Assembly (NCBI GenBank): GCA_963674735.2 | Contig: CAXXQS010000002.1 | Location: forward strand, 224,001 to 288,000 | DNA length: 64,000 bases | Origin: Myxococcota bacterium | Lineage (GTDB): Bacteria; Myxococcota_A; SURF-8 | Direction: 5' to 3' | In this document: piece by piece, positions 3,931-32,059 of the stretch | Layout: every line of letters begins with the position of its first letter | Position numbering within the stretch: the first letter of the stretch is position 1 | Made by a program: the position numbers and the translations under genes | The notes under the pieces: generated by a model | Told to the model about the DNA's origin: nothing | Databases searched by the model: none | Seen by the model: only the letters and a program-made list of their open reading frames with translations

Positions 3931-4156
3931 ATTCCGCACTCCCGACAGATGATTATTTATTCTGTATTTACAGAGCGTTGAATCCCCTCCTCCATGCGGC
4001 CACTCACAAAATCGAGCCGTTGCGGTAACGCGCCGGTTCGAACACGCCTCTTTGAAAAAGGAGGGGCCGCGCATAGTAAGACATAAAGTAACAAAGGAAT
4101 TTACCGATAATCTTAGTTGTAGTGCAGTTAATTCCGAATCTTGAATTGGATGCAAC

Positions 4157-7100
4157 ATGATCGACTCAAAGCGCCATAAAGATACGTCCTACAAAGCCGT
4201 GTGGAATTGGTTCCGATATTTCATCAAATACTTCATCCCCGGCATGATCTTGGTTTCCCTTTTCCTCTACCTGGCGTTTTTCGTTCTTTTTCCACTTATC
4301 GAATCGACCAGCATCCAAAAAAAGCGCGAGATGATTCAAAATCAGGTTTCAATCGTTTATTCGATCGTGAATCATTACCACACGCGTTCCCAACAGGGGA
4401 AATTAAGCGAAGAAGAAGCGAAAAAAACGGCGATGGAGACGGTTCGAGTTCTTCGTTATGGGGCTGACAAGCGTGACTATTTTTGGATCAACGACATGAA
4501 CGGCGTCATGTTGATGCATCCCTACCGACCAAACCTCGAAAACCGGAACCTCCTTGAAATGCAGGACAAGGGCGGTAAAAAGCTATTCCGTGAATTCGTA
4601 AATGTGGCAAAAATGAAGGGAGATGGCTTCGTTGATTATTATTGGCAACACAACGACGATGCCAGCTTCATAACGAAAAAAATCTCTTATATCAGCCGAT
4701 TTGAGCCCTGGGACTGGGTTATCGGGACCGGGGTTTACATCGAGGATGTCAAAGCCGAATTGTCTATTTTAACATCCAAAATATTGAGCTACCTGTATTT
4801 CAGCATCTTTATGACGATAGCGATTTCACTATTCACAAGCATCCAAACGCTGCGATTACAGAAAAGGCGCGACGAGTATCAAGAACAAATTATCGAAATG
4901 GAACAATGGTACCGCGCCATTCTCCTCCACATCGATGAAGGAATCGTAGTCTGCAATCTTTCCGAACAGATTCTATTTATGAACGCCAAAGCAAAATCCC
5001 TCCTCGGTGTCAACGAGCAAGACACAGGCGACAAGAAATTGAACGATCTCTTCTCGATAACGACTAACGAGGGCGATAAGACGGTGGTTTTGCCGGTCGG
5101 CGAAATGAAAACGGTCGAACGAAAATACATCGTAGCTCGTCGAAAAACGAGCCGTGGCGATTTGAGTTACCTCGCGTTCAACCTGGCTCGATTGGACGCC
5201 GACCTTTTCGGTACGGAAATGGTCATCATTGCCATAAGCAACGTCACAAATCAAACGAGTGTAATGCTTGAAACGGAGGAATATGCAAAGCAATTGGATT
5301 CCATCATCGAATCCAGAACGGAACAGCTGGTTAAAGCCAACAACGACCTGAAGCTTGCCCAGCTTGCCATCAATTCCGCCGCAGACGGCATTTCATTCAT
5401 CGATGCCACAGGAAGCGTCATTTCCGCCAACGACGCCGAAGAAACCATTTTAGGGATCCCAACCGAAACGATCGTGGGTTCGATACATCCCGCGATTCAA
5501 CAGGCCCTCTCCACAGAGGAAAGTATCGCGTCCAGCCTATCCAATAGCAGCGTATGGCGAGGATCGATCACATACAAACAAAAAGACAAGGAAGACAAGC
5601 CGCTGGAACTGACCCTGACCCCGATTCCGAAACGAATCGGGGATCGGCAGACCTTCATGCTCATCGAAAAAGACGTTACCGAAAAGCGCCGGCAGGAGGA
5701 ATCGCTTTACAGACTAAAGGCCGCCTTCGAACAATCGCTGGACGGAGTAGCCATATTGGATATGGAAATGAAAATACTGTTCGCCAATCAAGCGTGGGCC
5801 GTCCTCCATAACCAACAATCCGACTCCCTCATCGGTCAAGATTACCGGAGCTTTCATACCGACGAAGAAAATGAATCGGAGATGTGCGTCTTTTTTGATG
5901 AATTGCACAAAAAGGGAAATGCAACCGGGGAAATCACCCTCCGGGGCCAGGATGGTCACGATATACCGACAAGCAGCACCGCCACCATTATCTATAACTC
6001 AGAAATGAAACCCAGCGCCATACTGGTTATCACAAAAGACGTGCGAGAACAAAAAGAATACGAAGCGGCCCTTAAACAATCCGAATTGAAATTTCGAAGC
6101 TTATTCGACTACTCCAGCGACGCTATTTTTATCCTTGAAGATGGGCAGATCGTTGATTGTAACAATAAATCCTTGGAAATGTTTCGAGTCGATTCCCATG
6201 AAAGTATGCTCGAATATTCCGTAGAAGATCTATCCTTCCCCTATCAGATTGGAGAAGAACCGGCATCCATTAAAAAGACTGAACATATCGAAGCGGCCAT
6301 TCGGAATGGAAACGAAAGCTTTGAGTGGTCTCACCGTCGGACAAACGGAGAAGTTTTTCAAGCCGATGTCCATTTGAGCCCTATTCGGATCGGCGATCGA
6401 GTTTTTGTCCAGGGAGTCATTCGTGATTTGACGGAAAAACACCGGATGGAAATGGAGCTGCGGCAGGCTCAGAAGCTCGAATCCATCGGTCAGCTTGCAG
6501 CCGGAATCGCGCACGAGATCAACACGCCGATTCAATTCATCGGCGATAGCATCTTTTACCTCGAAGATGCATGTAAGGATGTAACAAACCTGGTCGCGAG
6601 ATATAAAGGCCTTCTGGGAAATGTTGACGACGCAGAAGAAAGAAAAGCCATACGGGAGCTTGAAGAAGAAATCGATGAAGACTGCGATCTGGAATTTCAT
6701 ACCGAAGAAACGCCGAATGCGTTTGAGCGTATCAAACGCGGGACCGACCGTGTCACGGCCATCGTTCGAGCTATGAAAGAGTTCGCGCACCCCGATTCTT
6801 CCGAAATGGAATTTTCCGACCTCAATCGTCTCATCGAAACGACAGTGACGGTCGCTACAAACGAGTTTAAATACGTGGCGGAATTGAAACTCGAACTCAA
6901 CGAGGTCCCGCAGGTCTACTGTCATCGCGGAGAAATCAACCAGGTGTTGATCAACCTCATTGTCAATGCAGCGCATAGTATCAAAGACAAGAGTGAAACA
7001 TCCGATGGGATGGGGCTCATCAGGATCCGCACGGAAGAGATCGACGGTTTCGTGCAAGTCTTAATTTCAGACACGGGAATGGGAATCCCGGAAGGAATCC

Positions 7101-7279
7101 AGGAACGTATTTTCGATCCGTTTTTCACCACCAAGAAAGTGGGCGTGGGAAGCGGTCAGGGGTTGGCGATCAGTCGAAACCTCATCGTTGAAAAGCACAA
7201 AGGGAAGCTTTTTTTCACAACCAAGAAGAACGAAGGAACCACATTCCACATTCATCTCCCGTTGGAGAAATCACCATGA
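4157..7279 (+). CDS. Membrane sensor histidine kinase (single Cache_2, about 4 PAS, HisKA, HATPase)
   Basis: TM-Cache (YFWIND, MLMHP, WDWVIGTGVY)-TM; PAS repeats; H-box LAAGIAHEINTP; NLIVNA, DTGMG, FDPFFTTK, GSGQGL. Confidence 0.95.
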   Translation: MIDSKRHKDTSYKAVWNWFRYFIKYFIPGMILVSLFLYLAFFVLFPLIESTSIQKKREMIQNQVSIVYSIVNHYHTRSQQGKLSEEEAKKTAMETVRVLRYGADKRDYFWINDMNGVMLMHPYRPNLENRNLLEMQDKGGKKLFREFVNVAKMKGDGFVDYYWQHNDDASFITKKISYISRFEPWDWVIGTGVYIEDVKAELSILTSKILSYLYFSIFMTIAISLFTSIQTLRLQKRRDEYQEQIIEMEQWYRAILLHIDEGIVVCNLSEQILFMNAKAKSLLGVNEQDTGDKKLNDLFSITTNEGDKTVVLPVGEMKTVERKYIVARRKTSRGDLSYLAFNLARLDADLFGTEMVIIAISNVTNQTSVMLETEEYAKQLDSIIESRTEQLVKANNDLKLAQLAINSAADGISFIDATGSVISANDAEETILGIPTETIVGSIHPAIQQALSTEESIASSLSNSSVWRGSITYKQKDKEDKPLELTLTPIPKRIGDRQTFMLIEKDVTEKRRQEESLYRLKAAFEQSLDGVAILDMEMKILFANQAWAVLHNQQSDSLIGQDYRSFHTDEENESEMCVFFDELHKKGNATGEITLRGQDGHDIPTSSTATIIYNSEMKPSAILVITKDVREQKEYEAALKQSELKFRSLFDYSSDAIFILEDGQIVDCNNKSLEMFRVDSHESMLEYSVEDLSFPYQIGEEPASIKKTEHIEAAIRNGNESFEWSHRRTNGEVFQADVHLSPIRIGDRVFVQGVIRDLTEKHRMEMELRQAQKLESIGQLAAGIAHEINTPIQFIGDSIFYLEDACKDVTNLVARYKGLLGNVDDAEERKAIRELEEEIDEDCDLEFHTEETPNAFERIKRGTDRVTAIVRAMKEFAHPDSSEMEFSDLNRLIETTVTVATNEFKYVAELKLELNEVPQVYCHRGEINQVLINLIVNAAHSIKDKSETSDGMGLIRIRTEEIDGFVQVLISDTGMGIPEGIQERIFDPFFTTKKVGVGSGQGLAISRNLIVEKHKGKLFFTTKKNEGTTFHIHLPLEKSP

Positions 7280-8490
7280 CGGAAAAGCCGCAGATCCTTT
7301 TTGTTGATGACGAAAAGGGAATTCTGGATAGTATCAAAGTCGTTTTACGCAAATACCGGAAAATTTGGGAAGTTTTACTGGCTTCCAGCATGGAGGAAGC
7401 GCTGGAAATCGTTGAATCGAATAACATCGATATTCTCATTTCCGATTTCCGTATGCCGGGAAAATCCGGACTCGATCTTCTTGAACTGATACGGAAAGAT
7501 CATCCGAATATTATTCGTATCATTCTTACGGGACAAATAGAGACGGAACAAACCATCAGGTCCATCTCCACCGCGCAGCAATTTATCAGCAAGCCAATCC
7601 GCTCCGACGAGCTCACCTCGATCCTCGAACGTAATGTCGCGTTACTTAAGTACGTTGACAATCCTTATCTGAAAAAATCGATCGGGTTTATCGGAAATCT
7701 ACCATCCAAGACAAGCACCTACAACAAATTAACATATCTGCTTGGAAAACCGACGGCCACGATAACGGATATGGCTTCCGTCGTTGAACACGATCTGGCC
7801 ATAACGGCCAAAATCCTGCAAATTATCAACTCCTCCTTTTTCGGTTTGGTCAAAGAAGTCACCAATATCAAAACGGCCGTTACACTTCTTGGAGAAAATG
7901 TTCTTCGCAGTATCGTTCTCAGCGAAGAAGTGAAGAAAGTCCTCGGTACGGAGAAATTTCCAGACGGCTGGTCGATGAATGCGCTGCATGAGCACAGTAT
8001 AAGATCGGCGATTATGGCTTCTAAAATTGCCCGAACCCCTGCTGAAAAAGAACAGGCTTTCATTTCAGGTTTCTTGCACGATTTCGGCATTCTTATCATC
8101 GCCTGCAAGTTCCCGGACTTGTTCAAAGAGCATGACCAATTATCGAAAAAGCGCTCCTGTCCGATAAGCGATGTTGAATACGAAAAATTCGGAATATCGC
8201 ATGCCGAGATCGGCGCTTACATGTTGGGACTTTGGGGACTGCCCTTTGATATTATCGAAGCCATTGCTCACCACCACACCATCATGAACTACCCGATGGA
8301 AGAGCTAGGCCTGGTCGATTTGGTCTTTTTGGCGGATATCGCATCCAAAGTTTCTGCCGATGATCCCGGTTGGGAAAACGTTTTTGATGAGCGGTACGAA
8401 GAACGATTGAAAAAGCTATCGAATAAGGACGAAGCAATTATCGCAATTGATAAGCTTAAAAGCATCATCAGCCATGGAGTTTCCGAATGA
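7276..8490 (+). CDS. Response regulator, REC + HDOD
   Basis: VDDE/SDFRMP receiver; HDOD motifs DLAITAKILQIINSSFF, LHDFG, WGLP; ATGA overlap with the kinase. Confidence 0.92.
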   Translation: MTEKPQILFVDDEKGILDSIKVVLRKYRKIWEVLLASSMEEALEIVESNNIDILISDFRMPGKSGLDLLELIRKDHPNIIRIILTGQIETEQTIRSISTAQQFISKPIRSDELTSILERNVALLKYVDNPYLKKSIGFIGNLPSKTSTYNKLTYLLGKPTATITDMASVVEHDLAITAKILQIINSSFFGLVKEVTNIKTAVTLLGENVLRSIVLSEEVKKVLGTEKFPDGWSMNALHEHSIRSAIMASKIARTPAEKEQAFISGFLHDFGILIIACKFPDLFKEHDQLSKKRSCPISDVEYEKFGISHAEIGAYMLGLWGLPFDIIEAIAHHHTIMNYPMEELGLVDLVFLADIASKVSADDPGWENVFDERYEERLKKLSNKDEAIIAIDKLKSIISHGVSE

Positions 8491-9632
8491 AAACAACCAA
8501 GCTGGAGGTTTTGTGTGTCGATGATGAAATCGAGGTTCTCAATGGACTGAGAATGATCCTGCGTCGAAACTACAACGTTACCGTGACCGAAAGTGCGCAC
8601 CAGGCCCTGGAGTACTTGAAAACCGAAAAATACAGCATCATCCTATCGGATATGCGCATGCCGGAAATGAACGGGGCGGACTTCTTGGCCAAGGCGAAAC
8701 GAATTTCGCCGAATAGCGTCCGCATGCTGCTCACCGGCTATAGTGACCTGAACGCCGCGATCGATGCGATCAACAAAGGTCAGGTTTATCGATTTTTGAC
8801 AAAGCCCTGTCCGCCGGATCAACTGTTGAATATTTTCGATGATGCCGCCCATCAATACTCATTGATCACCGCCGAAAAGGAATTGCTGCATAAGACCTTA
8901 AAAGGCAGCGTGACGGTTCTGGCTGAAATTCTTTCGATTGTCGACCCGGAAACAGCGGACGCCGTATCCGGGCTGCGTTCGGTCCTGGTCAGCATCGCCA
9001 AGGAACTGGAGTATGCCAAGCAATGGGATCTGGAAATAGCCTATCTCATTTCCAGTATCGGTATCGTAACGATTCCATCGGAGTTGCGCCAGAAAGCGAA
9101 ATCGAATGAAGCGCTGACTGAGGATGAAGCCGATCTTATAGGTCGTGTTCCGGAGATCGGAGCCAAGCTGATTTCTCACATTCCCCGCATGGAAACGGTA
9201 GCCGAGATTGTGCGGTATCAAGCGAAAAATTTCGATGGATCGGGCTTCCCGCGCGACTCCGTAAGAGGAGACAAGATTCCTCTCGGGTCGAGAATCCTGC
9301 GTATTCTTAAAGACTACGATTTGGCGGAGAACATTCAAAAAACGGATGAGTGGTACAAACGGCTTAAAACAGATGAGACTACATACGATCCGGATGTAGT
9401 GAAGGTCTTTATTAAATATGCCAATCTTCTACCCACAAGTTTTGAACTCGTTGAGATCGATCCAAGACGCCTGCGCACTGGGGATCGCTTGATAGATCCC
9501 GTTACAACCGACAAAGGAAGGCTTCTTCTCGCTGCCGGAATGCGAATCAATCAACCCATACTGGAAAAATTGCACCATTACGCGTCGATCGTCGAACTAC
9601 AGGGACAAGTCAGGGTTGAACGCCCCAAATAG
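8487..9632 (+). CDS. Response regulator, REC + degenerate HD-GYP-like domain
   Basis: SDMRMP receiver; HD replaced by SS (SSIG); YQAKNFDGSGFP in place of HHExxDGxGYP. Confidence 0.9.
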   Translation: MKTTKLEVLCVDDEIEVLNGLRMILRRNYNVTVTESAHQALEYLKTEKYSIILSDMRMPEMNGADFLAKAKRISPNSVRMLLTGYSDLNAAIDAINKGQVYRFLTKPCPPDQLLNIFDDAAHQYSLITAEKELLHKTLKGSVTVLAEILSIVDPETADAVSGLRSVLVSIAKELEYAKQWDLEIAYLISSIGIVTIPSELRQKAKSNEALTEDEADLIGRVPEIGAKLISHIPRMETVAEIVRYQAKNFDGSGFPRDSVRGDKIPLGSRILRILKDYDLAENIQKTDEWYKRLKTDETTYDPDVVKVFIKYANLLPTSFELVEIDPRRLRTGDRLIDPVTTDKGRLLLAAGMRINQPILEKLHHYASIVELQGQVRVERPK

Positions 9633-9672
9633 AGAATGGCGAGCGTACTAAACCGAGATTTAGGAAACATGA

Positions 9673-10767
9673 ATGACCATCACAGCTAACATCGTTTTTG
9701 TCGATGACGATAACGAAATTCTTGATTCCATCAAAGTCATGCTCCGCAAGCAAACAAACTTCTGGAATATCGAGTATTTCAATGATCCCCTGGCCGCACT
9801 TGAGCGCATCAGGCACGGAGACGTCGATATCGTGGTCTCAGACATGTCGATGCCGGGAAAATCGGGATTGGATTTATTGCACGAAATCAAGAAGGATGAG
9901 GCGTCAAAATATAGCGCGGTCATCATCCTTACCGGACTCAATGATCGGAGCCTGAAGCGGGAAGCGCTGGCTGCCGGGGCGGCAGACCTGCTCAATAAGC
10001 CCATCGTCTTGGAAGATTTGCTGGCTCGGCTTGTCAATACCTTGAAAATGAAGCGCTACGAAGACGATCTTCGCGACAGCAACCTCACGCTTGATAATAT
10101 GGTAAGGGTGCGGACACTGCAACTGGAACAGTCCCGAATCGCCACGGTCATACACCTTGCCAAGGCAGGGGAATATCGAGATGAGGAAACCGGAAAACAT
10201 ATCATTCGAGTCGGCAGTTATGCGCGTTGTATTTGCGAACGCCTTGGAATGGAAAAGACGGACTGTGATGTGGTGGCGGTGGCGGCCCCCTTGCATGACA
10301 TTGGAAAAATCGGTATTCCCGACCGTATCCTTCTTAACCCGGGCAAGCTCGATGCCGAGGAATGGAAGATCATGCGTACCCATACTCAAATCGGATACAA
10401 CATATTGAACACCAATTTGATCAACATGGAACGGCTCATTCCCGATATGAAATGGAAAGACGGCGACATGTTCGATTATTATCCCGTCATTAATGCCGCT
10501 TCGGAAATCGCATTGAATCATCACGAGCGCTTGGATGGCAAGGGCTACCCCAATGGTTTAAGGGGCACGGCTATTCCCCGTAAAGCCGTCATCGTCGCCA
10601 TCAGCGACATGTACGATGCCTTAAGAAGTGAAAGACCCTACAAAAAGGGATTTTCCCATCAAAAAGCCATGGAAATCATTGCGGAAGACACGGGACATTT
10701 CGACCCGGAAGTTTGTGAGGCTTTTTTCGATCTTTCAGACGAAATCAGTTTCTTGTTTGACCTGTAA
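9673..10767 (+). CDS. Response regulator, REC + HD-GYP cyclic di-GMP phosphodiesterase (RpfG-like)
   Basis: EYRDEETGKH, HDIGK, HHERLDGKGYP and RPYK motifs intact. Confidence 0.93.
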   Translation: MTITANIVFVDDDNEILDSIKVMLRKQTNFWNIEYFNDPLAALERIRHGDVDIVVSDMSMPGKSGLDLLHEIKKDEASKYSAVIILTGLNDRSLKREALAAGAADLLNKPIVLEDLLARLVNTLKMKRYEDDLRDSNLTLDNMVRVRTLQLEQSRIATVIHLAKAGEYRDEETGKHIIRVGSYARCICERLGMEKTDCDVVAVAAPLHDIGKIGIPDRILLNPGKLDAEEWKIMRTHTQIGYNILNTNLINMERLIPDMKWKDGDMFDYYPVINAASEIALNHHERLDGKGYPNGLRGTAIPRKAVIVAISDMYDALRSERPYKKGFSHQKAMEIIAEDTGHFDPEVCEAFFDLSDEISFLFDL

Positions 10768-20189: not shown

Positions 20190-22739
20190 TTAGGCCTCAC
20201 CGTCCTCATCATCAGACTCGTCGGCCCCGACGGGCTTGGCCACCGAATCCAGGGAAAGCTGTTCGGGCAGGACATCGTCCAGGTCGTCGCCGTCTCCAAG
20301 GCCCTCTTCCCGATCATCGCGCTCGGCCATCTTGGCCACCACCGCCACATGATCGTCCTTGCCCAAGTTGATCAGACGCACACCCTGGGTGTTGCGGCCA
20401 ATCACGTTGAGACCGCGCATCTTCATCCGCAGAATGATGCCTTTGTTGGTGATCAACATCACGTCGTCGTCATCGGTGACCTGGTAGACGCCCACCACAT
20501 CGCCGTTGCGCTCGGTGTTCTTGATGGTAATGATACCCAAACCACCGCGTTTCTGCACCCGGTAATCCTCGGTGCGCGTGCGTTTACCGAAACCGTTTTC
20601 AGTAACGGACAGAATTGTGGCGCCCTCCGACAGCACATCCATCGCCACCACGCAGTCGTCTTTGGCCAGGCTGACGCCGCGAATTCCGCGCGACACGCGC
20701 CCGATGGGCCGCACGTCGGTTTCGGGGAAACGGATGGACTTGCCTTTCAGGGTGGAAAGCAGAATATGTTTGGTTCCGTCGGTCAGCCGCACGGAGATGA
20801 TCTCGTCCCCCTCATCCAGCTTGATGGCCTTGGTGCCGTTGCTGCGCGGGTTGGAGTAGGCATTCAACTCGGTCTTTTTCACCACGCCTCTTTTGGTGGT
20901 GAACACGACGTACCAGCCGTCTTTGTATTCGCGAATCGGCAAAATGGCGGCCGGACGTTCTCCCTGAGCCATGCGCACCAGATTGACGATGGCTTTGCCG
21001 CGTGCGGCGCGCCCGCCCTGGGGGATTTCATGCACCTTCAGCCAGTACACCACCCCATGATCGGAGAAAATCAACACCGTATCGTGGGTCGAAGCCACAA
21101 ACAGATCGGTCACGATATCTTCCTGCTTGGGCTTGACGCCGGTTTTGCCCTTCCCGCCCCGGCGCTGGTTGCGATAGAGGCTGATGGCGTTGCGCTTGAT
21201 ATAGCCGGAATGGGTACAGGTGACGACCATATCTTCTTCAACGATCAGATCCTCGATACTGAGTTCCACCGTATCGGCCAAAATCTCGGTACGCCGCGGA
21301 TCGGCGAATTTCTCGCGCGCCTGCTTGAGCTCGTCCACGATCACCTGCATGAGCAGTTTCTCGCTGGCCAGAATCGCCTTGAAACCCTCGATCAGCGCCA
21401 GGGTGTCTTTCAACTCCTGGACGATTTTGTCGCGTTCGAGACCGGTGAGGCGTTGCAGACGCATATCCAGAATGGCCTGAGCTTGGCGTTCGGAAAGCTT
21501 GAATTTTTTAATCAAGGCGGCTTTGGCTTCGGCCGGATTTTTGCTGGCGCGAATCGTTGCCACCACTTCGTCGATATTATCGAGCGCGATCTTCAAACCT
21601 TCGAGGATATGGGCGCGTTCCTCAGCTTTGTTCAACTCGAACTGCGTACGGCGCGTCACTACGTCCCGACGATGGTCGATGAAATGTTGCAGCATCTTGA
21701 CCAGGGTCAGCACGACCGGCTGGCCGTTGACCAGCGCCAGCAGGATGATTCCGAAGCTGGTTTGCATCTGGGTCATTTTGTAGAGGTTATTGAGCACCAC
21801 GCCCGCCACGGTATCGCGCTTGAGTTCCATCACGATGCGCATGCCGTCACGATCGCTTTCGTCGCGCAGATCCGAAATGCCTTCCAGCTTCTTGTCTTTG
21901 ACCAGCCGGGCAATCGATTCGATCAACTTGGATTTGTTGACCATGTAGGGAATCTCGGAGACGATGATCGATTCGCGATCATTGCGCCGGTTGCGTTCGA
22001 TGAGTGCCCGCGCCCGCAGTTTGATGACGCCACGCCCGGTTTCATAGGCTTTGAGAATGCCCTCGCGCCCATAGATAAACCCGAAGGTGGGGAAATCGGG
22101 GCCAGGAATCAATTCCATCATTTCGGGCAGGGTAAGCTTCGGATTTTCAATCAACGCAATGGCGCCGTCGATCACTTCACCCAGATTATGCGGCGGAATA
22201 TTGGTGCTCATCCCCACGGCGATGCCCGCCGCGCCGTTGATCAACAGATGCGGCACCCGTGCGGGAAAGACCAGCGGTTCACTCTCGGAACCGTCGTAGT
22301 TGGGGGCGAAATCGACCGTGTCTTTTTCGAGATCGGTGATCAGTTCTCCGGCGATTTTATCGAGACGCACTTCCGTATAACGCATGGCGGCTGCCGGATC
22401 GCCATCCACCGAACCGAAGTTGCCCTGGCCATCCACCAACGGGTAACGCAGCGAAAAGGGCTGGGCCATACGCACGATGGTGTCGTACACGGCCGAATCG
22501 CCGTGCGGGTGGTATTTACCGATTACGTTACCGACCACGCGGGCCGATTTTTTGTAGGGCTGGTTCCAATAGTTCTTCATTTCGTGCATGGCATACAAAA
22601 CGCGCCGATGCACCGGCTTGAGGCCGTCGCGAACATCCGGCAAAGCGCGCGCGATGATGACCGACATGGCGTATTCCATGTAACTGGTCTTCATCTCGTC
22701 TTCGATATTGACCGGAATCTCTTTGGGTTGAAACAACAT
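20190..22739 (-). CDS. gyrA: DNA gyrase subunit A
   Basis: [23 protein letters not shown], GyrA-box QRRGGKG. Confidence 0.98.
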
Positions 22740-23107: not shown

Positions 23108-26100
23108 CTATTCGGTAACGTTAAAGGCCACCGGCGCCGTGGTACTCTCCGATTCAGGCTCGTAATAGGGAGCCGCAGAGGCCGAGCCGGAACTGCCCTC
23201 CATGGGGAAACGAGCTCGCAACTGGTAGGTGAGAGACAAGGTCTCCCCGGCGGCGATGCGCTCCACATAGAGAATGAGCTGCCGTCCGGCCACTTCATAG
23301 CGTTGCAGCGCCGTATTTTGCACCTGCTCCACCAGATCGTCGGGCACCAGATCAAAGCCCGGCGGCAAGCCGATATCCACCAGCACCATCAGGACATTGG
23401 CGTCCGAGACGTTGCCGATGGCGGCCGTGGCGGTCACGATATCATCCACGGCCAGAGTGGTTTTATCGTAGCTGATGTCGATGGTGAGCGGACCGCCCGA
23501 ACCGTAAGGGTTCTCCTCGCCCGGCACCCAGTAACTCGATACGACCGAGTACATCAAGTTGCCTTCGCCACTGACCACCAGCTCAACCGCATTATCGCCT
23601 TCCACCAGGAATTCACTCAGATCGACATACTGCATCACCTCGGAGTTGTTGGCATCGACCGTCACCGTACCGCCCAGACTGCCGTTGGCATTGACGATGA
23701 TGGTGGCGTTTGATTCCTCAACCTGCGATCCCAGCGAAGCAATCATGAAACGTAGAGCCTGAATAGTACCGGCTGTTGTAGACCAATTGCCGAAACTGTC
23801 TTTTTTCGACAGCAGCCAGTCCATGATACCCGGCACCAGGTTGGTGTTCTGACCGGCACGGATGAAAGCCTGCCCCACGAGGCCGGTCGTTTCCATTTCG
23901 GCCGAACCACCCGAGCCATACATCTCGGTTTGCTCTTCCTGAGTCCAATAGATTTTGCCGTCCTCGTCCTCGACACGGGCTTCGTACAGGTCATCGAGGA
24001 CCGAGTCGAGTGCGGAATTGTCGGGATCGGCGGCCGTCAGCATCATGGCAAGAAGCGCCAGAGTGTAATTGTCGCCCGCCGCCTCGGAGCGGTTCTGTAC
24101 CGCCCAGTTGACACCCGCCGACACCGCGCCCCCGCTGAACCCGCTTTCGGCCAGGGCGTAGGTGATGTAAGCGGTGGTGCGCAGTTTGGACGATGTAAAG
24201 TTGTTGGTCGCGCCTTCGTGGATGCCGCCCGCGTCGAAGTCGTAGGAACCATCGCCGTTTTGCAGCGCCGCCAACCAATTTTGGGTACGTGTGATGATGG
24301 CCTCGTCCACGTCGTGGACCTTGCTCATGTCGCTGAATTCCAGCAACCCATAAGCGGTGAGGATGCGGTGGGCCGGAGTTTCACCGAACCACTCGAAACC
24401 GCCGCCGTCCACTTCATACGATACCAGCCGCTGATAGCCCTGACTGACATAGTCGCGCGCTTTCAACTCGATTTCGGGCGTGCTCTGGCCGGTCAGCGCC
24501 ATGTAATCGAGCACCAGCACGTTGGGGTAGGTGGCGGAGCTGGTCTGTTCGAAACAGCCCGAGGGCATCTGCAAGAGGCTATCAAGGCCTTCGATCATCT
24601 GGGAGAACAGGCCGGGGTAGATCTTCACCCACATACGCGAGGCATCGTCCACGGCCAGTTCAGGAATATTGACGGTGATGCTTTTCGATCCGTCGAGTCG
24701 TCCCGATTCGGCGTTACGCACTTCCAAACCATCGGGAATGACTTCAACCCGACGGCGAATGGCGTCACTCATCTCGCTGCCAATGGCGGTGACGGTAAAG
24801 TCGTGCCAACCCACCTTGACCACCTTGACCGGGAAATAGATACCGGTAACGGAACTGGGACCGACGGTGATGGAGCGGGTCTGACCTTCGAGGAATTCGA
24901 TCCAGTCGCCTGCCGCCGCCTCTAAATTGATGGTCTGAGGAGATTGCAGATAGTTGTAGATCGCGATGGGCACGGCCACAATGTCGTTTTGCGTCAGAGT
25001 GGCGGGAAAGTCGATGTCGACGAAAAAGTCCTGGTAAACGATCACATTGCCCACGTTCGAGCCGATCTGGCCCGCCAGTGAACTGGCCAAGGCGGTCATA
25101 CGCCAACTGGTGATCGAGTCGGCCATGGTGAAGTTGATTTCGGCTTCCCCGCTCGCATCGGTGATGACGGCCGGGTTGACGTAAAGCGTTTCAGGGAAGT
25201 AGGAACGCACGCGCGGACCGTCCTCTTCTTCACCGTCATCGCTGGAGGGCTGAGCGTCGCCGTCGGGCGCATCACCATCGGCCATGTCACCATCGCCGAT
25301 GCCTTCGCCCGGGGCGTTGGGTTCGCCGTCGAGGGCATCATCGTCAAAACCGCCCTCGCCATCCCATTCGTCGCGTCCGTCACCTTTAGCGTAAAAGTCC
25401 TTGCTGACTTCCAAGTCGTCGGCAGAACCTTTCCGTTCATCCATCCCGTTGGAACGCAGGGTCAGCCGATATTCGCCGTATTCCATCGTATAAGCGTGGC
25501 CCCAGGGATCATAGAGTGGATTGGAACCACTATTGCGCTGCTCGATCCAGGCCTTGATGCCCTGTTCGCCGGTGATGAAGCCCGAATCATACAGCCAGTT
25601 CAGATGGTCGATAACCGCCTGCAGATCCTCTGAAACGCGCGTGGTGGCCGTGGCCTGCGCAGTGGAATCCACGTTGGCGAAGGTATCCACATTGACTCCG
25701 TAAGCGGCATCGGTACCGGCGGAAGCCAAGAAGGCACCGGCATACGCCTCACGTTCTTCCGCCTCATCGGAATTTTCGGGTTCCGGTTCGAGAATGTCGG
25801 CGGCATCGAAGCCGTGAATCTCGTAGCGTGGCGCAAGCAATTCCTCTTCCAACTCGAAATAGATTTTCTCCATGCCCGGTTTCATGTCCTGCAGGGCGAA
25901 GACGGCCTCGTCCACCACCTGCACGCCCAATACCGACTGCACGCCGTTTTGTTCGTTGTCTTTCACACGCAGGCTGATGGTGGCGTCTTCGGCGGGGAGA
26001 TAGGTGCTTTTGTCGGGAATGATCTCGACCGTCAGCGAGTTGGCCAGTTCAACGAAGATCAACTTGCGGTCGCGAATGATCTCACCGGCCGCGCCGAGAT

Positions 26101-28027
26101 AATAGGCCATCAATTCGACAGATCCCGACAGGGTGGCATCGAGATCGATGGCGTAACTACCTTTGCCCTCGACCAACGAAACCGTGTGCATCAGCATGGT
26201 CTGGCCATCCTTGATGACATCCAGGTAAATGCGGTCGGGCAGGTCGACGGCATCCCAACCGTCATTGGTGGCGAACAAGCCGATTTCCACCGTTTCGCCC
26301 ACTTTGTAGAGCGCCTTGTCGGTGCGTAACATCACGTATTCACGTTGGGTTTCGCTGGCGAAACTGAAAGTTTTCGAGGCCGTGTCGCCGCTGCCGGTCT
26401 GAGCGGCTACGGCGATATCGAGGCTTTCACTCTGGGGAGTAAACTCGAAGATAGCCAAGCCCCAAAGCCCGGTATCGATGTTGCTCTCATTGCCGTCGAT
26501 GGTAAGGGCGCAGGCCGCATCCAACGGACGCCCGAAGGGGTCGGTGGTCATGAGGTAGAAACGGTTTTCGATACCGGGAACCAGAGAACCGGTTTCCGGC
26601 ACCACCGCCAGCAGGATCGGATTTTCGACCACCAAGGCCGACGTGCTTTTAATCTGCTGATGACCGGCCGTGTCGGTTACAGCGATTTCCAGAAAAACGT
26701 AGGCTTTGTTCTCATCGAGAGCGGCCGCGACGAAATAGCTGGGCAATTCGAGATCGAAGTCGAACTCGCCTTCCTCGTTGAGCGTGCCGTTCAAGGTGGC
26801 GAAGGTTTCCATTTCCACATCGAACTTGCTGGCCGTGATGGTCACCGCACCGCCATCCACCGGCTTGCCGAAGAAGTAATCGGAGTTCACCGATCCGTGC
26901 AGGGTCTGCCCCGGTCGATAGAAGGAGCGGTCGGTGCTCAACTCCACATTGAATTTCGGCAAGGCGTAACGTTCGACAGTCACGCTCTTTTCAGCGGCAA
27001 ATTCGCCCACTTGGGCTTGCAAGGTGTAAACGCCCTCATTCAGAATGGTGGCCAGCTTGAATTCGGTCGCCGCCACGCCGTAATCGGAACTTTCGAGTTC
27101 CTGTTTGAAAACCTTGTTGCCTTTGGGGTCGATCACGAAGAAAGTAACCGGCATCCCGGCCTGCGGCTTGAGGTCGGGACGTTTGAGCGCCAGTGCGCGC
27201 AGATGGATGGTCTGGCCGGGTTGATACAGCGGTTTGTCGGTGGTCAAGAGCACTTTGGCCTCACGGGCAATCGACAGCGGGGTCAGAGCCTGTTCCTGCT
27301 GTTTCCCATCGGGCATGTCGATCAACACCTTGAGTTGCGCGTTGCCGAATCCCTGTGAAGGCAAATCGATACGCACATCAGTCATACCGAAGGCGTCGGT
27401 GACACCCGAGCCGACCGGCGATTCGTCGTCGTCCTGCACCAACACGAAATTGGCACTCGCCCCCTCCACCGGCTGACCGGAATTGGGCTCGTGTACGATG
27501 AGTTTGTAGAAAGACGTGCCCCCCTCGTACAGATTCTCCGAACCCATCAACTGGGCTTGCACGTAGCGATAGGTGGTATGCAAAGAACGTGTCCCCCAGA
27601 TTTTGCCATCCGTCCAATCGAGACGGAACTTCATCAGGAAACCGCCTTTGTCGCTGTCGGCAAAGCCTTCGGGCAAGTCGCTCAGCACCACTTCGGAATC
27701 TTGCAGAGCGTCCTTGAGCGTAAGCGCCACGGTGCTTTCGCTGAGGCTCTCACCCGCCAGGTCGGTAAGCGTGACCGTCAGATCGACCTTCACTTCGGCG
27801 GCGGTCTTCTGATGAATCGGAATCACGATCGACAAACCTTCATCGATCAGTTGAGACGACATCTCCGCCTCTTTGACGAACAGATTGCCCGATTCCAGGT
27901 TTTCGTTGGGATTGATCTGATAGGGATCAAACAGCGTTTTCTCGCCGCTGTCCCCACAGCCGGAGAGGACAAACGCCGCCCCAAGCAAAACAGTCAGCAG
28001 CCAACGGAAGGCTTGATTCGGTTTCAT
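23108..28027 (-). CDS. Alpha-2-macroglobulin/thioester-protein family lipoprotein
   Basis: Lipobox LSGC; TDKPLYQPGQ, YALPKF, VRSYFPET, ADSITSW, thioester GCFEQ, C-terminal VDIGLPPGF. Confidence 0.95.
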   Translation of the reverse strand: MKPNQAFRWLLTVLLGAAFVLSGCGDSGEKTLFDPYQINPNENLESGNLFVKEAEMSSQLIDEGLSIVIPIHQKTAAEVKVDLTVTLTDLAGESLSESTVALTLKDALQDSEVVLSDLPEGFADSDKGGFLMKFRLDWTDGKIWGTRSLHTTYRYVQAQLMGSENLYEGGTSFYKLIVHEPNSGQPVEGASANFVLVQDDDESPVGSGVTDAFGMTDVRIDLPSQGFGNAQLKVLIDMPDGKQQEQALTPLSIAREAKVLLTTDKPLYQPGQTIHLRALALKRPDLKPQAGMPVTFFVIDPKGNKVFKQELESSDYGVAATEFKLATILNEGVYTLQAQVGEFAAEKSVTVERYALPKFNVELSTDRSFYRPGQTLHGSVNSDYFFGKPVDGGAVTITASKFDVEMETFATLNGTLNEEGEFDFDLELPSYFVAAALDENKAYVFLEIAVTDTAGHQQIKSTSALVVENPILLAVVPETGSLVPGIENRFYLMTTDPFGRPLDAACALTIDGNESNIDTGLWGLAIFEFTPQSESLDIAVAAQTGSGDTASKTFSFASETQREYVMLRTDKALYKVGETVEIGLFATNDGWDAVDLPDRIYLDVIKDGQTMLMHTVSLVEGKGSYAIDLDATLSGSVELMAYYLGAAGEIIRDRKLIFVELANSLTVEIIPDKSTYLPAEDATISLRVKDNEQNGVQSVLGVQVVDEAVFALQDMKPGMEKIYFELEEELLAPRYEIHGFDAADILEPEPENSDEAEEREAYAGAFLASAGTDAAYGVNVDTFANVDSTAQATATTRVSEDLQAVIDHLNWLYDSGFITGEQGIKAWIEQRNSGSNPLYDPWGHAYTMEYGEYRLTLRSNGMDERKGSADDLEVSKDFYAKGDGRDEWDGEGGFDDDALDGEPNAPGEGIGDGDMADGDAPDGDAQPSSDDGEEEDGPRVRSYFPETLYVNPAVITDASGEAEINFTMADSITSWRMTALASSLAGQIGSNVGNVIVYQDFFVDIDFPATLTQNDIVAVPIAIYNYLQSPQTINLEAAAGDWIEFLEGQTRSITVGPSSVTGIYFPVKVVKVGWHDFTVTAIGSEMSDAIRRRVEVIPDGLEVRNAESGRLDGSKSITVNIPELAVDDASRMWVKIYPGLFSQMIEGLDSLLQMPSGCFEQTSSATYPNVLVLDYMALTGQSTPEIELKARDYVSQGYQRLVSYEVDGGGFEWFGETPAHRILTAYGLLEFSDMSKVHDVDEAIITRTQNWLAALQNGDGSYDFDAGGIHEGATNNFTSSKLRTTAYITYALAESGFSGGAVSAGVNWAVQNRSEAAGDNYTLALLAMMLTAADPDNSALDSVLDDLYEARVEDEDGKIYWTQEEQTEMYGSGGSAEMETTGLVGQAFIRAGQNTNLVPGIMDWLLSKKDSFGNWSTTAGTIQALRFMIASLGSQVEESNATIIVNANGSLGGTVTVDANNSEVMQYVDLSEFLVEGDNAVELVVSGEGNLMYSVVSSYWVPGEENPYGSGGPLTIDISYDKTTLAVDDIVTATAAIGNVSDANVLMVLVDIGLPPGFDLVPDDLVEQVQNTALQRYEVAGRQLILYVERIAAGETLSLTYQLRARFPMEGSSGSASAAPYYEPESESTTAPVAFNVTE

Positions 28028-28239: not shown

Positions 28240-28279
28240 AAAAAACGAAAGCGGCTGTCAAGTTAGCTTGACAGCCGCT
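28240..28279 (-). terminator. Rho-independent terminator
   Basis: 13-bp perfect stem AGCGGCTGTCAAG/CTTGACAGCCGCT followed by TTCGTTTTTT. Confidence 0.8.
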
Positions 28280-28308: not shown

Positions 28309-29622
28309 TTATTGGGAAGGCTGGATCGTCCCCAGTCCGTCACCGGATACAATAAGTGAGATATCGGTGGATGACCGGACATCGAGGCGACAAACCATCC
28401 AGTGATGTTCAATCGGAAACGGCTCCGGTTCGGCGCTTTTGTCGTAGCGGAAGGTTCCACGCAGTTCTCCGAACAACCACACTTTAACCGTCAGCGCAAC
28501 CGAATCGGAACTGCTGTAATTCTCAACCGTTATCAGATATTCACCAAGCTGCGGGTCGTTCAGGTTGATGTTCTCCGGTCCCGTTCCGTTCACATCATCG
28601 ACATCCAATTTCGGATCGTCTGCACGATTACCGCTCCTTCCCCAATCAGGCGCATTGGAAGGTCCGGGACAACCGCGCGCCGGGCATTCGGGATTGATGC
28701 CCATCTCGGTATTGCAGTTTTGCCAGCAACAGTCGTCAACGTTGTTCACGGCACCGCAACTGCGCGTATGCAACCCGCCGGGGCGGATCAGATGCAGATC
28801 GTGGTCGTTCTCCGGTTCCGACCAGGTCAACTCGACGTGAATGGCACGGTCGGGGACGGCCACCACCACGGATCGACCTACATACACACCGGTGCAGGCC
28901 GGAATATTGTTTTTCAATATCAGGCGAATGATGTATGTACCCGCCAGCTCCGCCACAAAGTGCGGACGCGCTTCACGGCTGAATATCCCCTCAATGGGAT
29001 AATCGTTTTCATCGTAAAGGACAACTCCCTCCGCCCCGGCGGGTTTTGCCTCCCATACCCATTTGTAAACGAAAAAAGCATCATTGGGATCGTAGGAGTA
29101 GGAAGCATCCAACCGCACCTCATCGAGAGGCAAGACAATGCGGTCGGGACCTAATACCGGTACCGCGCAATCATCGTAAGGAATATCGCCGTCGGGATGA
29201 TCACCATCGGGATGGTCGCCGTCGGGATGGTCGCCGTCGGGCCAATCGCCGTCGGGCCAATCGCCGTCGGGCCAATCGCCGTCGGGATGGTCGCCGTCGG
29301 GATGGTCGCCGTCGGGATGGTCGCCGTCGGGCCAATCGCCGTCGGGATGATCACCATCGGGATGATCGCCGTCGGGATGGTCGCCATCGGGATGGTCGCC
29401 ATCGGGATGATCGCCATCGGGATGATCGCCGTCGGGCCAATCGCCGTCGGGATGGTCGCCGTCGATCATATCGCCGTCATTACCAGAGCTTTCATGGTCG
29501 GCATCACCATCCATGTCTCCTTCGTCCGGCTCCTCGAATACGATGGCAGGAGAACTCCAGCAACCCACAAACACGATCAACCCAGCCAGCAGCCATCCTC
29601 TCCAAATTCCCCGGTTTGTCAT
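28309..29622 (-). CDS. Lipoprotein with DGD(H/W)P repeats, a PKD-like domain and a YfaP/DUF2135-like C-terminal domain
   Basis: ATG at 29622 with GGAGGT RBS; lipobox FVGC; LDASYSYDP (PKD-like); VELTW, DHDLHL, LDVDDVNGTGPENI (YfaP-like). Confidence 0.85.
   Translation of the reverse strand: MTNRGIWRGWLLAGLIVFVGCWSSPAIVFEEPDEGDMDGDADHESSGNDGDMIDGDHPDGDWPDGDHPDGDHPDGDHPDGDHPDGDHPDGDHPDGDWPDGDHPDGDHPDGDHPDGDWPDGDWPDGDWPDGDHPDGDHPDGDHPDGDIPYDDCAVPVLGPDRIVLPLDEVRLDASYSYDPNDAFFVYKWVWEAKPAGAEGVVLYDENDYPIEGIFSREARPHFVAELAGTYIIRLILKNNIPACTGVYVGRSVVVAVPDRAIHVELTWSEPENDHDLHLIRPGGLHTRSCGAVNNVDDCCWQNCNTEMGINPECPARGCPGPSNAPDWGRSGNRADDPKLDVDDVNGTGPENINLNDPQLGEYLITVENYSSSDSVALTVKVWLFGELRGTFRYDKSAEPEPFPIEHHWMVCRLDVRSSTDISLIVSGDGLGTIQPSQ
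29179..29478 (-). repeat. In-frame 15-bp tandem repeat: 13 DGDHP + 5 DGDWP units plus two flanking variants
   Basis: Units counted directly in the DNA (core array 29194-29463). Confidence 0.95.
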
Positions 29623-29914
29623 GGCAAACACCTCCATGCCATAGGTTGCCGACCCAACGACATTCCTCGCTGGAAAAAGGCCTATTTGGATGATCTTCGA
29701 TGGTCCGTGACTCGAATAAGTACTCTACCCGACCCGGTTGAATTAAGCAAGCAAGGGAAAAACAGGTTCGAAAAACACCGATCAAACGCAGACCCGACAG
29801 ATTAGCCACATACTCCTTTTTATCGAATCCATTCAAGTGGTATACTTCGACACTATAATCCTCACCCTGGACAACGAAAATGTGGATGTTCTTAAACCGG
29901 CAAGCTCAACAACC

Positions 29915-32059
29915 ATGAACCATCGCTCTGCCCCACAACCAGCCGAGCCTGTCCCACCCATTGAAACGCCATCCGCGTTCCAAATAAAGAGGCTTTCGCT
30001 ATTTGCACTGGCGACGACCACCCTTGCCGTCTTCCTGTGGTTTGTTTTTATGGTGGAACACGCAGCCCCATTTACCCCCGGTCTGGCTTTGAACGATGGC
30101 TGGAAAGTGCTGGATGTGGAATCCGACGGCTACGAAATGCGTTTGACGTTGAAATCGGCGGAGGCTTCCGAGGGAATGAAAGGACTGAGTCTCGCCATCA
30201 CACCGGGTGCCAATCACTATCTGATCCACGCCCTCACGAGAACTTCCTTGCCACAAGACCTTGCCGAAACCATTCGACAACATATTCATCATTGGGAAAC
30301 CAAGCGCGGCCAAGTCCTGCTGGCCGTCGAGGGAAGCGAAGCCCAAGAAGCCTTTTTCTTATTTATTATACCGGTATTGCTAATATTTTTGTTTATCGGA
30401 ACAAGCCTACTCGTCTGGATACGCGGCTTTCCCCATTACCGATCGAGCGGACTGATCGTCGTCTTTTCAGCTCTTCTCTTCACCTTGTTTTTCAGATTCC
30501 ACCCCGACGCGAGTCTCGTCCCGATCGAATGGATCACCCTGATGAGCCATGGTTGGAGCAAAACCACCATCCAGATCCTATCCGGTCTGGGCATTCACGC
30601 CGGTCCCGCCTTCAAACCGCTTTTACTGGGGTTCAGTTTCGATCAGTCTACCGTATTACAACAGATCGTCAAAACCAACCTCTGGCTCTGGGGCTTGAAC
30701 GGATTGTGGTTTTATATTCTTGCACTCCATTGGTTGCGCAAGCCCTGGCTTGCAACGGCCCTGGCCCTGCTTTACTCGATCAATGTGTTGAGTTTAAACG
30801 CCATGCTATCCGAAACGCCCGCTATGCTGTTGGCCTTTCTGTTCTGGACCGGCATAACGGCGCTATACTGGATTCGACAGAGTAACACCCACCCACGTTT
30901 AGCCCTCTTCGGCGTACTTATCCTGGTGCTCGCCACCTGGCTGACTCTCGCCATTCGGGGTGAAGTGGCGCTTTTCGGATTGGTCGCCATCGCGCTTGTG
31001 ATCCTGCATCCTCTGGCCACCTTGCCACCTTTCAAACGAGGGAATAACGGTCGGACGAACACAGGTCAATCGGAAAAGCCTTTTTGGGCCGACGCCACGA
31101 TGTGGGCCCTGCTGCTGACATTGCTAGCGGTTTACACTTTTCTTTACCACCTGCATATCCACTCTCATCGCATCACCCCTCTGCTTTTTGCCCCGGATTT
31201 ATTCGCCGGACTGAAGAGCCACTTGCATATCGTTTATCAATGGGCGCTGGATAGCCTCAATCCCACCCATGTCAGTTTTCTTCTTCTTCCCGGTCTGTTG
31301 GGACTTTACTTTCCACTCGCTCTCGTACTCGTTGCCGGATTGGGTATTTTTCACTCTCTCAAACGCCCCTCGCTTTACGCGGCACTTCCCATAGGACTCG
31401 CGCTCGCCATCAATATCTACGTGCTGGCGGCACTGGGCGATCTGCGCTATCATTTTCGTTTCCTCTCGATGCTTCTGGCTCCTCTTTTTTTGCTGGTCGT
31501 CCTCGGTTTCCACACGCTCATCACCCATTTTCGTTTTGCCGCGCTGCGTCCAGGCAAGCAACGCTTGATGCTCATCATCATTTTGCTCACTTGTGTCGTT
31601 TCTCCATCCGACCTTCTCCCCGGCAGCTCGAGCGGCGATCCACTGGAAGCAACAGGTGCACGCTACCTGAAACTGCTCGATCGAAACGAGCAGAAGGAAG
31701 CTCGCTTTATCTTGGAAGCAATGGCAACGCATCCCGATTGCTTCTTCGTCGCCAAAACAATGCGTCACAAATACAGCCACGATATGCGCCATACATTCGA
31801 TTATACGATATGGGGAAATCACCTGGGTCGGATCGTCCACCGCAACCACCTGCCCGGTAAAGCGGCATTGGGCGGCAGTTGTCTGTTATTCGTCAAAGCC
31901 CTGGACTGCTTTCGTCCCGACGCTGCTAACTGCAAGGCCGAAACGACGAGTCTGGAACCGCTTTCTGAACGACTCGTCACCTCCCGCGCCTACAGCCCGC
32001 CGGATGATTGGGGTCCGGTCGAAGCCAATCTGCATCTCGCCCTTTACCGAATTCCATGA
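29915..32059 (+). CDS. Polytopic membrane protein, possibly GT-C-fold glycosyltransferase-like
   Basis: About 12 or more hydrophobic segments; SETP and RGE motifs in loops; soluble Cys-containing C-terminus; start uncertain (29837 GTG or 29915 ATG). Confidence 0.7.
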   Translation: MNHRSAPQPAEPVPPIETPSAFQIKRLSLFALATTTLAVFLWFVFMVEHAAPFTPGLALNDGWKVLDVESDGYEMRLTLKSAEASEGMKGLSLAITPGANHYLIHALTRTSLPQDLAETIRQHIHHWETKRGQVLLAVEGSEAQEAFFLFIIPVLLIFLFIGTSLLVWIRGFPHYRSSGLIVVFSALLFTLFFRFHPDASLVPIEWITLMSHGWSKTTIQILSGLGIHAGPAFKPLLLGFSFDQSTVLQQIVKTNLWLWGLNGLWFYILALHWLRKPWLATALALLYSINVLSLNAMLSETPAMLLAFLFWTGITALYWIRQSNTHPRLALFGVLILVLATWLTLAIRGEVALFGLVAIALVILHPLATLPPFKRGNNGRTNTGQSEKPFWADATMWALLLTLLAVYTFLYHLHIHSHRITPLLFAPDLFAGLKSHLHIVYQWALDSLNPTHVSFLLLPGLLGLYFPLALVLVAGLGIFHSLKRPSLYAALPIGLALAINIYVLAALGDLRYHFRFLSMLLAPLFLLVVLGFHTLITHFRFAALRPGKQRLMLIIILLTCVVSPSDLLPGSSSGDPLEATGARYLKLLDRNEQKEARFILEAMATHPDCFFVAKTMRHKYSHDMRHTFDYTIWGNHLGRIVHRNHLPGKAALGGSCLLFVKALDCFRPDAANCKAETTSLEPLSERLVTSRAYSPPDDWGPVEANLHLALYRIP

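Follow-up and report, generated by a model that had tools for sequence, protein, structure and literature searches.

Two types of bacterial alpha-macroglobulins have been described. Proteins of type I, such as ECAM (YfhM) from E. coli and SaA2M from Salmonella (PDB 4ziq, 5a42, 4u48), are lipoproteins with a CxEQ thioester and a bait region, their gene often adjoins the gene of PBP1c, and they have been proposed to be protease traps protecting the cell envelope (PMC5764988; PMC4498604). Proteins of type II, such as MagD, also trap proteases, lack the thioester and are encoded in the mag operon (PMC5764988). Both types are described as differing in structure from their animal counterparts (PMC9156758). 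Among the animal proteins A2ML1 (PDB 7q1y) is a monomeric protease inhibitor carrying a histidine, His1084, at the site on which the reactivity of the thioester depends; conjugation of glycerol and inhibition of amine-free thermolysin are seen with the wild-type protein and lost in the mutant H1084N (PMC7864068). Here we describe a gene located on the minus strand at 23108..28027 of a stretch of 64,000 nucleotides from a Myxococcota bacterium (contig CAXXQS010000002.1, positions 224,001 to 288,000), which we call the window. The gene codes for a macroglobulin that fits neither bacterial type and that, by sequence comparison, belongs to a very large, uncharacterized bacterial clade with an invariant GCFEQT motif. 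We suggest, giving this reading about an even chance, that the protein is an exported, lipid-anchored thioester alpha-macroglobulin of metazoan-like build which acts as a histidine-assisted protease trap.

When the whole protein is compared with solved structures, human alpha-2-macroglobulin (A2M) is the best match with an E-value of 6.9e-66, followed by CD109 (2.3e-62), A2ML1 (2.6e-48), the thioester-containing protein (TEP) TEP1 (3.2e-45) and C3 (5.6e-28), whereas the type I bacterial proteins SaA2M and ECAM are found with E-values of 3.2e-14 and 1.4e-10. Judged by these values ECAM is a much more distant relative of the macroglobulin than human A2M, CD109 or TEP1. Its predicted domains are those of a full A2M/TEP of metazoan-like build (MG2, MG3, BRD, A2M, TED and A2M_recep, TED being the thioester domain). 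The initial annotation had read the gene as a thioester lipoprotein of the A2M/C3/TEP family, and this reading is upheld by the Pfam domain set, by the match to TED_complement (5.1e-40) and by a lipobox motif. The E-value of the TED_complement match and the presence of GCFEQT in 119 of 119 motif-bearing homologues longer than 1000 amino acids show that these features are not due to chance. The features of the gene, with the residues of the protein and the supporting evidence, are as follows.

27956..28027, minus strand: signal peptide with lipobox L-S-G-C, residues 1–24 with Cys24 (by motif)
27254..27955, minus strand: N-terminal extension before MG2, residues 25–258, Ig-like (sub-threshold Ig-like Pfam match, Mannosidase_ig 0.0017)
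27008..27253, minus strand: MG2, residues 259–340 (Pfam PF01835, 5.5e-27)
26747..26968, minus strand: MG3, residues 354–427 (Pfam PF17791, 6.1e-08)
25892..26329, minus strand: Pfam part of the A2M bait-region domain (A2M_BRD), residues 567–712 (PF07703, 6.2e-16)
25397..25687, minus strand: pseudopilin (GspG)-like insert in the bait region, residues ~781–877 (AlphaFold2, VIA-align, Foldseek)
25208..25363, minus strand: disordered acidic low-complexity stretch, presumed bait proper, residues 889–940 (AlphaFold2 pLDDT, hypervariability)
24923..25174, minus strand: A2M (MG7), residues 952–1035 (Pfam PF00207, 6.3e-17)
23750..24604, minus strand: TED, residues 1142–1426 (Pfam PF07678, TED_complement, 5.1e-40)
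24545..24559, minus strand: thioester motif G-C-F-E-Q, residues 1157–1161 with Cys1158 and Gln1161 (motif search)
24218..24220, minus strand: codon CAC of His1270, at the position of the residue determining thioester reactivity (profile and TEP1 alignments)
23138..23389, minus strand: receptor-binding/MG8 domain of metazoan type (A2M_recep), residues 1547–1630 (Pfam PF07677, 3.9e-11)

The open reading frame is intact, codes for 1639 amino acids, starts with ATG and is preceded at a distance of ~9 nt by a GAGGAG Shine-Dalgarno sequence. The N-terminus, MKPNQAFRWLLTVLLGAAFVLSGC, fits a lipobox. The Cys1158 codon of the GCFEQ motif occupies positions 24554–24556, and 112 residues further on His1270 closes the segment WLAALQNGDGSYDFDAGGIH (residues 1251–1270). 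Both the motif and the histidine were thus found at the codons at which the initial annotation had placed them, and the further motifs that it had listed, YALPKF, RSYFPET and DSITSW, are present in the translation at residues 354, 941 and 970. The N-terminal extension exceeds a single MG domain by ~130 amino acids, as the alignment with C5 begins at residue 260 of the protein and at residue 127 of C5.

Several other assignments were considered and discarded. Neither an anaphylatoxin nor a C345C/NTR domain is matched by Pfam in the macroglobulin at E ≤ 0.01, which rules out an orthologue of complement C3, C4 or C5. Assignment to type I is ruled out by the weak similarity to ECAM, by the missing pbpC neighbour and by the missing bMG10 domain, which is found in 5 of 14 control genomes but nowhere in the window's genome; the other bacterial-MG Pfam domains have no match in the macroglobulin either. 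A type II protein of the MagD kind is ruled out by the GCFEQ motif, and the gene seems to stand alone as opposed to the six genes of the mag operon. The A2M_recep domain, on the other hand, finds no match in any of the 14 control genomes, which include E. coli. No NCBIfam model fits the macroglobulin, the sole match reaching 24.9 bits compared to a cut-off of 730. The gene is the single member of the A2M family in the window's genome.

The fold of the TED is in agreement with this placement. A profile of the family built from 53 TED sequences finds CD109 as best match (6.8e-48), and SaA2M with just 2.4e-05. The AlphaFold2 model built from these 53 relatives has a mean pLDDT of 91, a pTM of 0.91 and 14 helices. 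Its alpha/alpha-toroid fold matches the TEDs of A2M and CD109 with a Foldseek E-value of 1e-14 and a TMq of 0.85–0.86, and C4Adg and C3d with a TMq of 0.83 and 0.79, respectively.

The closest of the described systems share different traits with the window's protein. A2ML1 has the same domain order, the same TED fold and the histidine at the reactivity site, and as a monomeric covalent trap whose histidine permits conjugation to hydroxyls it is the best functional analogy (PMC7864068). Nevertheless, A2ML1 has CGEQ in place of CFEQ, and it is secreted and glycosylated and lacks a lipid anchor, an additional N-terminal domain and a pilin-like insert in its bait region. Human CD109 (PDB 8s3o, 9fx2), a TEP with a glycosylphosphatidylinositol (GPI) anchor, is the best match of the TED, and its histidine aligns with His1270. 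Both proteins are lipid-anchored, CD109 by its C-terminal GPI and the window's protein, as judged from the motif, by an N-terminal lipobox. The bait of CD109 is different, and CD109 is cleaved by furin. Anopheles TEP1 (PDB 2pn5, 4d94, 4lnv), a monomeric thioester-containing protein, matches over the full length, and the histidine of its HKEMQGG segment falls on His1270. TEP1 is a soluble opsonin of the haemolymph which is stabilized by a leucine-rich repeat partner, whereas no conserved partner gene was found near the macroglobulin gene in 19 related loci. ECAM and SaA2M share the lipoprotein nature, the CxEQ thioester motif and the bait region with the window's protein, which differs from them by the presence of A2M_recep and by the absence of bMG10 and of a pbpC partner. 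C3, C4A and C4B have the TED fold in common with it, and the acyl-imidazole histidine of C3 and C4B corresponds to His1270 through N1088 of A2M; they contain the anaphylatoxin and C345C domains, and the window's protein contains neither. The C4 isotypes carry a histidine (C4B) or an aspartate (C4A) at this site, and the change between histidine, aspartate and other residues from clade to clade of the bacterial proteins recalls this pair.

We consider it quite likely that His1270 is located at the sequence position of the residue that determines reactivity, as the initial annotation had proposed for its candidate catalytic histidine. In the family profile, in which His1270 is position 130, the residue is placed on the histidine of CD109 (VIH) and on Asn1088 of human A2M; the hydrophobic Ile1269 then falls on an isoleucine or leucine, and the gap falls after the site. 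In a pairwise search with a short segment His1270 is placed on the TEP1 histidine mentioned above, and the gap is again located downstream. In the family position 1269 is isoleucine or leucine in 111 of 119 homologues and position 1270 is always polar or small, which agrees with the placement by the profile. Asn1088 of A2M is the position equivalent to the histidine responsible for hydroxyl reactivity in A2ML1, C3 and C4B (PMC7864068, Harwood et al. 2020), and the equivalence of His1270 to these three histidines was reached by way of A2M N1088.

The clade to which the macroglobulin belongs is widespread. In the homologue search 7998 candidates were scored, and 2840 of them had E ≤ 0.001. The best 120 of these 2840, the query included, were examined in detail; they are 1158–1696 amino acids long with 38–68% identity, and nearly all share the same Pfam set. 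Those with a name are annotated as 'MG2 domain-containing protein', as 'YfaS (alpha-2-macroglobulin family)' or simply as hypothetical. GCFEQT is present in all 119 that exceed 1000 amino acids and bear the motif, the 120th being a fragment of 1158 amino acids, and 95 of 98 loci likewise contain it. In species-representative genomes at least 663 of the 669 stretches picked out by pattern code for a relative; these stretches are not gene counts, as two patterns were drawn from the same gene. The 80 loci that were kept come from Planctomycetota, Armatimonadota, Verrucomicrobiota, Myxococcota, Spirochaetota, Sumerlaeota, Cloacimonadota, Zixibacteria, Hydrogenedentota, Chloroflexota, Acidobacteriota and others, altogether from more than 15 phyla. 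The distribution among close relatives is patchy: the TED is matched in 16 of 30 relatives of the window's genome and, inside the family, in 2 of 5. A lipobox according to a strict pattern is present in 45 of the 119 homologues, and in many others the signal peptide is of the plain type; all six listed members of the orthogroup have a cysteine after the hydrophobic region.

At the site of His1270 the clade is variable in a structured manner. Among 215 TEDs alanine is found 61 times, histidine 42, arginine 34, aspartate 29, a gap 17, proline 10, glutamine 7, serine 5, tyrosine 4, asparagine 3, glutamate 2 and phenylalanine once. In a FastTree phylogeny of 94 TEDs the site changes 17 times among 79 filled tips, compared to a median of 20 changes per TED column (rank 158 of 288). 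This count rules out that the site is hypervariable; having fewer changes than the median column, it behaves as a constrained, clade-specific position. Histidine requires four to five changes on this tree, of which at least three are forced by well-supported branches. The differences lie between clades, and inside a clade the residue tends to be kept. Thus, GGIHEGA is found in all close relatives examined (five proteins with 54–65% identity and one further locus), and the histidine is also present in all five genomes of the same family or order with a strong TED match (loci L186, L187, L189, L190 and L191). In a separate clade, mostly of Armatimonadota, all 15 members have histidine (YLH-x-ESW), in another 17 of 18 members have alanine, the Planctomycetota have mostly arginine, and a 'YLD' group has aspartate. 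One genome of the same family encodes two full-length paralogues, L190 with GGIHEGA and L203 with GGISEGA, and this pair resembles an isotype pair. No clear pattern of coupling between the site and the residue preceding the thioester cysteine was seen in the 215 TEDs.

Two further observations on the site concern single groups of loci. In a clade of 13 loci, which are assigned by their record titles to lineages of Myxococcota or Deltaproteobacteria and in several cases to Anaeromyxobacteraceae or Anaeromyxobacter, a deletion of four residues removes the site (G----SEFATV) and GCFEQT is kept. In a Phycisphaerae metagenome-assembled genome (MAG) one locus (L037) reads RILHDEMKEKL, a context of the histidine unlike that of its sister sequences with arginine or glutamine and, as we presume, close to the C3 motif.

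The bait region is enlarged, with ~225 residues between the Pfam BRD (567–712) and RSYFPET (941). In an alignment of 31 relatives this region has three parts. A conserved helical segment is followed by a conserved motif, D-P-W-G...S-x-G-x-D...G-T-x-D-D, which is present in 31 of 31 relatives and reads DPWGHAY...SNGMDERKGSADD in the window's protein, and then by a stretch that is hypervariable in length and composition and ends at the P-R-V of the conserved PRV-R-x-YFPET. The variable stretch is acidic in the window's protein and rich in glycine, arginine or alanine in other relatives. AlphaFold2 gives the insert a pLDDT of 88–96 over residues 51–140 of the bait model, and model residues 48–143 (residues ~782–877 of the protein) form two helices, the first of them long, and a sheet of three strands. 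Residues 155–206 of this model, which correspond to residues 889–940 of the protein, have a pLDDT below 50, with runs at 155–186 and 188–191. In VIA-align seven of the top eight chains matching the insert are major pseudopilins of the type II secretion system, with middling Z-scores of 5.6–6.6 and a root-mean-square deviation of 3.3–4.5 Å across 80–90 residues. In Foldseek the top rows are likewise pseudopilins, the best with an E-value of 0.025 and none at E ≤ 0.001. The Pfam family T2SSG matches the insert with an E-value of 0.0091 and 16.5 bits, under its cut-off of 21, and is on record for four homologues; a single-sequence search of the PDB with the insert returned nothing relevant. Taken from the models, the pilin-like reading of the insert is moderately supported, and such a domain probably takes the place that the anaphylatoxin has in C3, beside a disordered bait. 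The bait proper is presumed to be the exposed, flexible stretch 889–940 ahead of R-x-YFPET and the second half of MG6.

If the protein is a trap, a protease would cut the disordered acidic bait (residues ~889–940) beside the pseudopilin-like insert. The cleavage would lead to a rearrangement by which the thioester between Cys1158 and Gln1161 becomes exposed, His1270 would attack the thioester, and acylation of both amino and hydroxyl groups would follow, limited to a very short distance. As a net result the attacking protease would be captured covalently and blocked sterically at the cell envelope, similar to the action of A2ML1 or ECAM. Monomeric inhibitors including ECAM rely on covalent capture (PMC7864068), so a histidine that broadens the range of nucleophiles would be useful to a trap. 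His1270 would accordingly widen the range of proteases caught, and as far as the sequence allows such a statement it likely broadens what the window's protein can catch.

A number of points weigh against a catalytic histidine in a trap, and several of them speak for a rival reading, in which the thioester trap works and His1270 is a tolerated loop residue without catalytic effect, the protein being mainly reactive towards amines like ECAM or A2M. We consider this possible but on balance doubtful. Non-catalytic residues occupy the site in most of the 215 relatives, with alanine, arginine, aspartate, proline, glutamine, serine, asparagine, glutamate and tyrosine in other clades, so the histidine is not needed for the basic function of the family, and on the tree it was gained or lost at least four to five times, at least three of these changes being forced. 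The A2M mutant N1088H gained little hydroxyl conjugation, barely altering its reactivity (PMC7864068), and the histidine alone is therefore not sufficient. The initial annotation had proposed an alignment with animal and bacterial relatives and a model of the TED as a check of the residue, and here the outcome is divided. TEP1, histidine on histidine, and the profile-based comparison with CD109 and A2M support the equivalence, whereas pairwise phmmer alignments of the TED with CD109 and A2M open a gap of one residue before the histidine and place Glu1271 under the histidine or Asn1088. The modelled TED fold is confident, but the site lies in a loop of 26 residues between the model helices 102–114 and 141–154, and this loop is uncertain with a pLDDT below 50 at TED residues 132–136 and a mean of 73 over residues 121–130. 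Two more points weigh against the trap itself: its bait is almost purely acidic, and many proteases cut such a sequence poorly; and no conserved protease or partner gene was found near the macroglobulin gene in the 19 related loci. Against a merely tolerated histidine speak its strict conservation in the orthogroup down to 54% identity, its presence in every member of the separate, mostly armatimonadotal clade, the column being slower than the median and so not free to drift, and the genome which keeps a histidine and a serine paralogue in a manner recalling isotypes. It is very unlikely that the thioester does not form or that the role of the protein is one of non-covalent structure or binding. 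Type II bacterial proteins do trap proteases without a thioester (PMC5764988), a precedent that has nothing specific to the window's protein, and such a role is at odds with the constancy of GCFEQT (119 of 119 homologues; 95 of 98 loci, spread over many phyla) and with the intact reading frame and its Shine-Dalgarno sequence.

The initial annotation had gone further and suggested that the protein attaches to carbohydrate surfaces rather than only trapping proteases. In such an opsonin- or adhesin-like role the histidine-assisted thioester would, once activated, esterify sugar hydroxyls and fix the protein or its cell covalently to a glycan surface, which might be that of the cell itself (envelope or matrix) or that of a competing or preyed-upon cell, and capture of the activating protease would not be the main outcome. 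This role would be in line with the position of His1270, which is that of C3, C4B and TEP1; through its lipid anchor the protein would stay attached to the cell after the reaction. The nearest named relatives of the macroglobulin are MAGs of Myxococcota and Bradymonadales, and some members of these groups are predatory. In C3 and C4B the histidine confers conjugation to glycans (PMC7864068; PMC9156758), and insect TEPs of like build are described as being without demonstrated protease inhibition and are thought to be complement-like (PMC9156758). Nevertheless, the step from a histidine to glycan surfaces is unsupported, because A2ML1 carries the histidine and yet inhibits proteases, so that histidine and protease inhibition are compatible (PMC7864068). 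Anaphylatoxin and C345C domains are missing, as is a convertase-like partner, and no neighbour is conserved in the 19 related loci. In addition, the acyl-imidazole has a half-life of less than 1 second (PMC7864068), so that a lipoprotein facing the periplasm would for the most part encounter water, a protease or peptidoglycan. We thus regard a tagging role as unlikely and prefer the histidine-assisted protease trap.

The surroundings of the gene show no partner. Downstream on the same strand are gyrA (20190–22739, minus strand; Pfam DNA_topoisoIV 6.6e-170) and a tetratricopeptide repeat (TPR) protein, and upstream is the gene of a repeat lipoprotein, so the earlier statement that no pbpC gene is adjacent is correct. 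In the whole genome no PBP1c reaches the NCBIfam cut-off, the best candidate scoring 165.1 bits compared to 494.2. The contrast drawn in the initial annotation with an E. coli-type A2M paired with pbpC is however beside the point, as the macroglobulin is not of that type. Between the upstream lipoprotein gene and the macroglobulin gene there is a strong terminator-like hairpin with a stem of 13 bp (28250–28279, minus strand), and promoter-like sites are found ahead of gyrA. The macroglobulin gene probably stands alone, as far as can be read from these signals. A tblastn search with four neighbours against the 19 related loci gave no match, and clustering of the open reading frames across these loci revealed no neighbour common beyond a subgroup of four loci.

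The neighbourhood has some features of its own. The upstream gene (28309–29637, minus strand) codes for a lipobox protein of 442 amino acids with ~20 DGDHP/DGDWP pentapeptide repeats and a cysteine-rich C-terminal domain of ~280 amino acids, and it matches neither Pfam nor NCBIfam. The best matches of GyrA have 59–61% identity and belong to assorted phyla, so they say little about taxonomy. The C-terminal tail of GyrA, ~50 residues long, is unusually acidic and rich in D, E and G, resembling the DGD-type low-complexity stretches of the macroglobulin bait and of the upstream lipoprotein. An open reading frame of 740 codons on the plus strand (29837–32059) has many hydrophobic, probably membrane-spanning segments and no Pfam match. 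At window positions 4001–10000 the G+C content is 0.46–0.48 compared to 0.53–0.64 elsewhere in the window and the AT skew turns positive; this part may be a foreign island.

Literature searches returned no description of the clade or of a histidine-bearing bacterial macroglobulin, and a mention in older papers is possible. The window's gene itself is, judging from its sequence, an ordinary, well-formed and probably functional member of the clade, and it is the clade that makes further work worthwhile, with its metazoan-like build, its clade-specific reactivity residue and its pilin-like bait insert. The clade is widespread and resembles the metazoan proteins down to the receptor-binding-type domain, its thioester motif is invariant, and it varies at the very residue known to decide between reactivity towards amines and towards hydroxyls. 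One could go further and see in the gene a third type of alpha-macroglobulin, pan-bacterial and nearer to metazoan TEP, A2M and complement proteins than to ECAM or MagD, in which the site has been switched between clades and paralogues (histidine, aspartate, alanine, arginine, serine), similar to C4A and C4B, and the histidine isoforms are complement-like taggers of glycans. As a whole we hold this proposal to be quite improbable. If it were true, the histidine isoforms would, after a proteolytic trigger, esterify glycans on their own envelope or on the surface of a competitor or prey, and a clade with a pilin-like domain at the place of the C3 anaphylatoxin would bear on the direction of descent, from bacteria to the metazoan TEPs or the reverse. 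The clade also adds new sequences with which the origin of the complement/TEP family can be studied.

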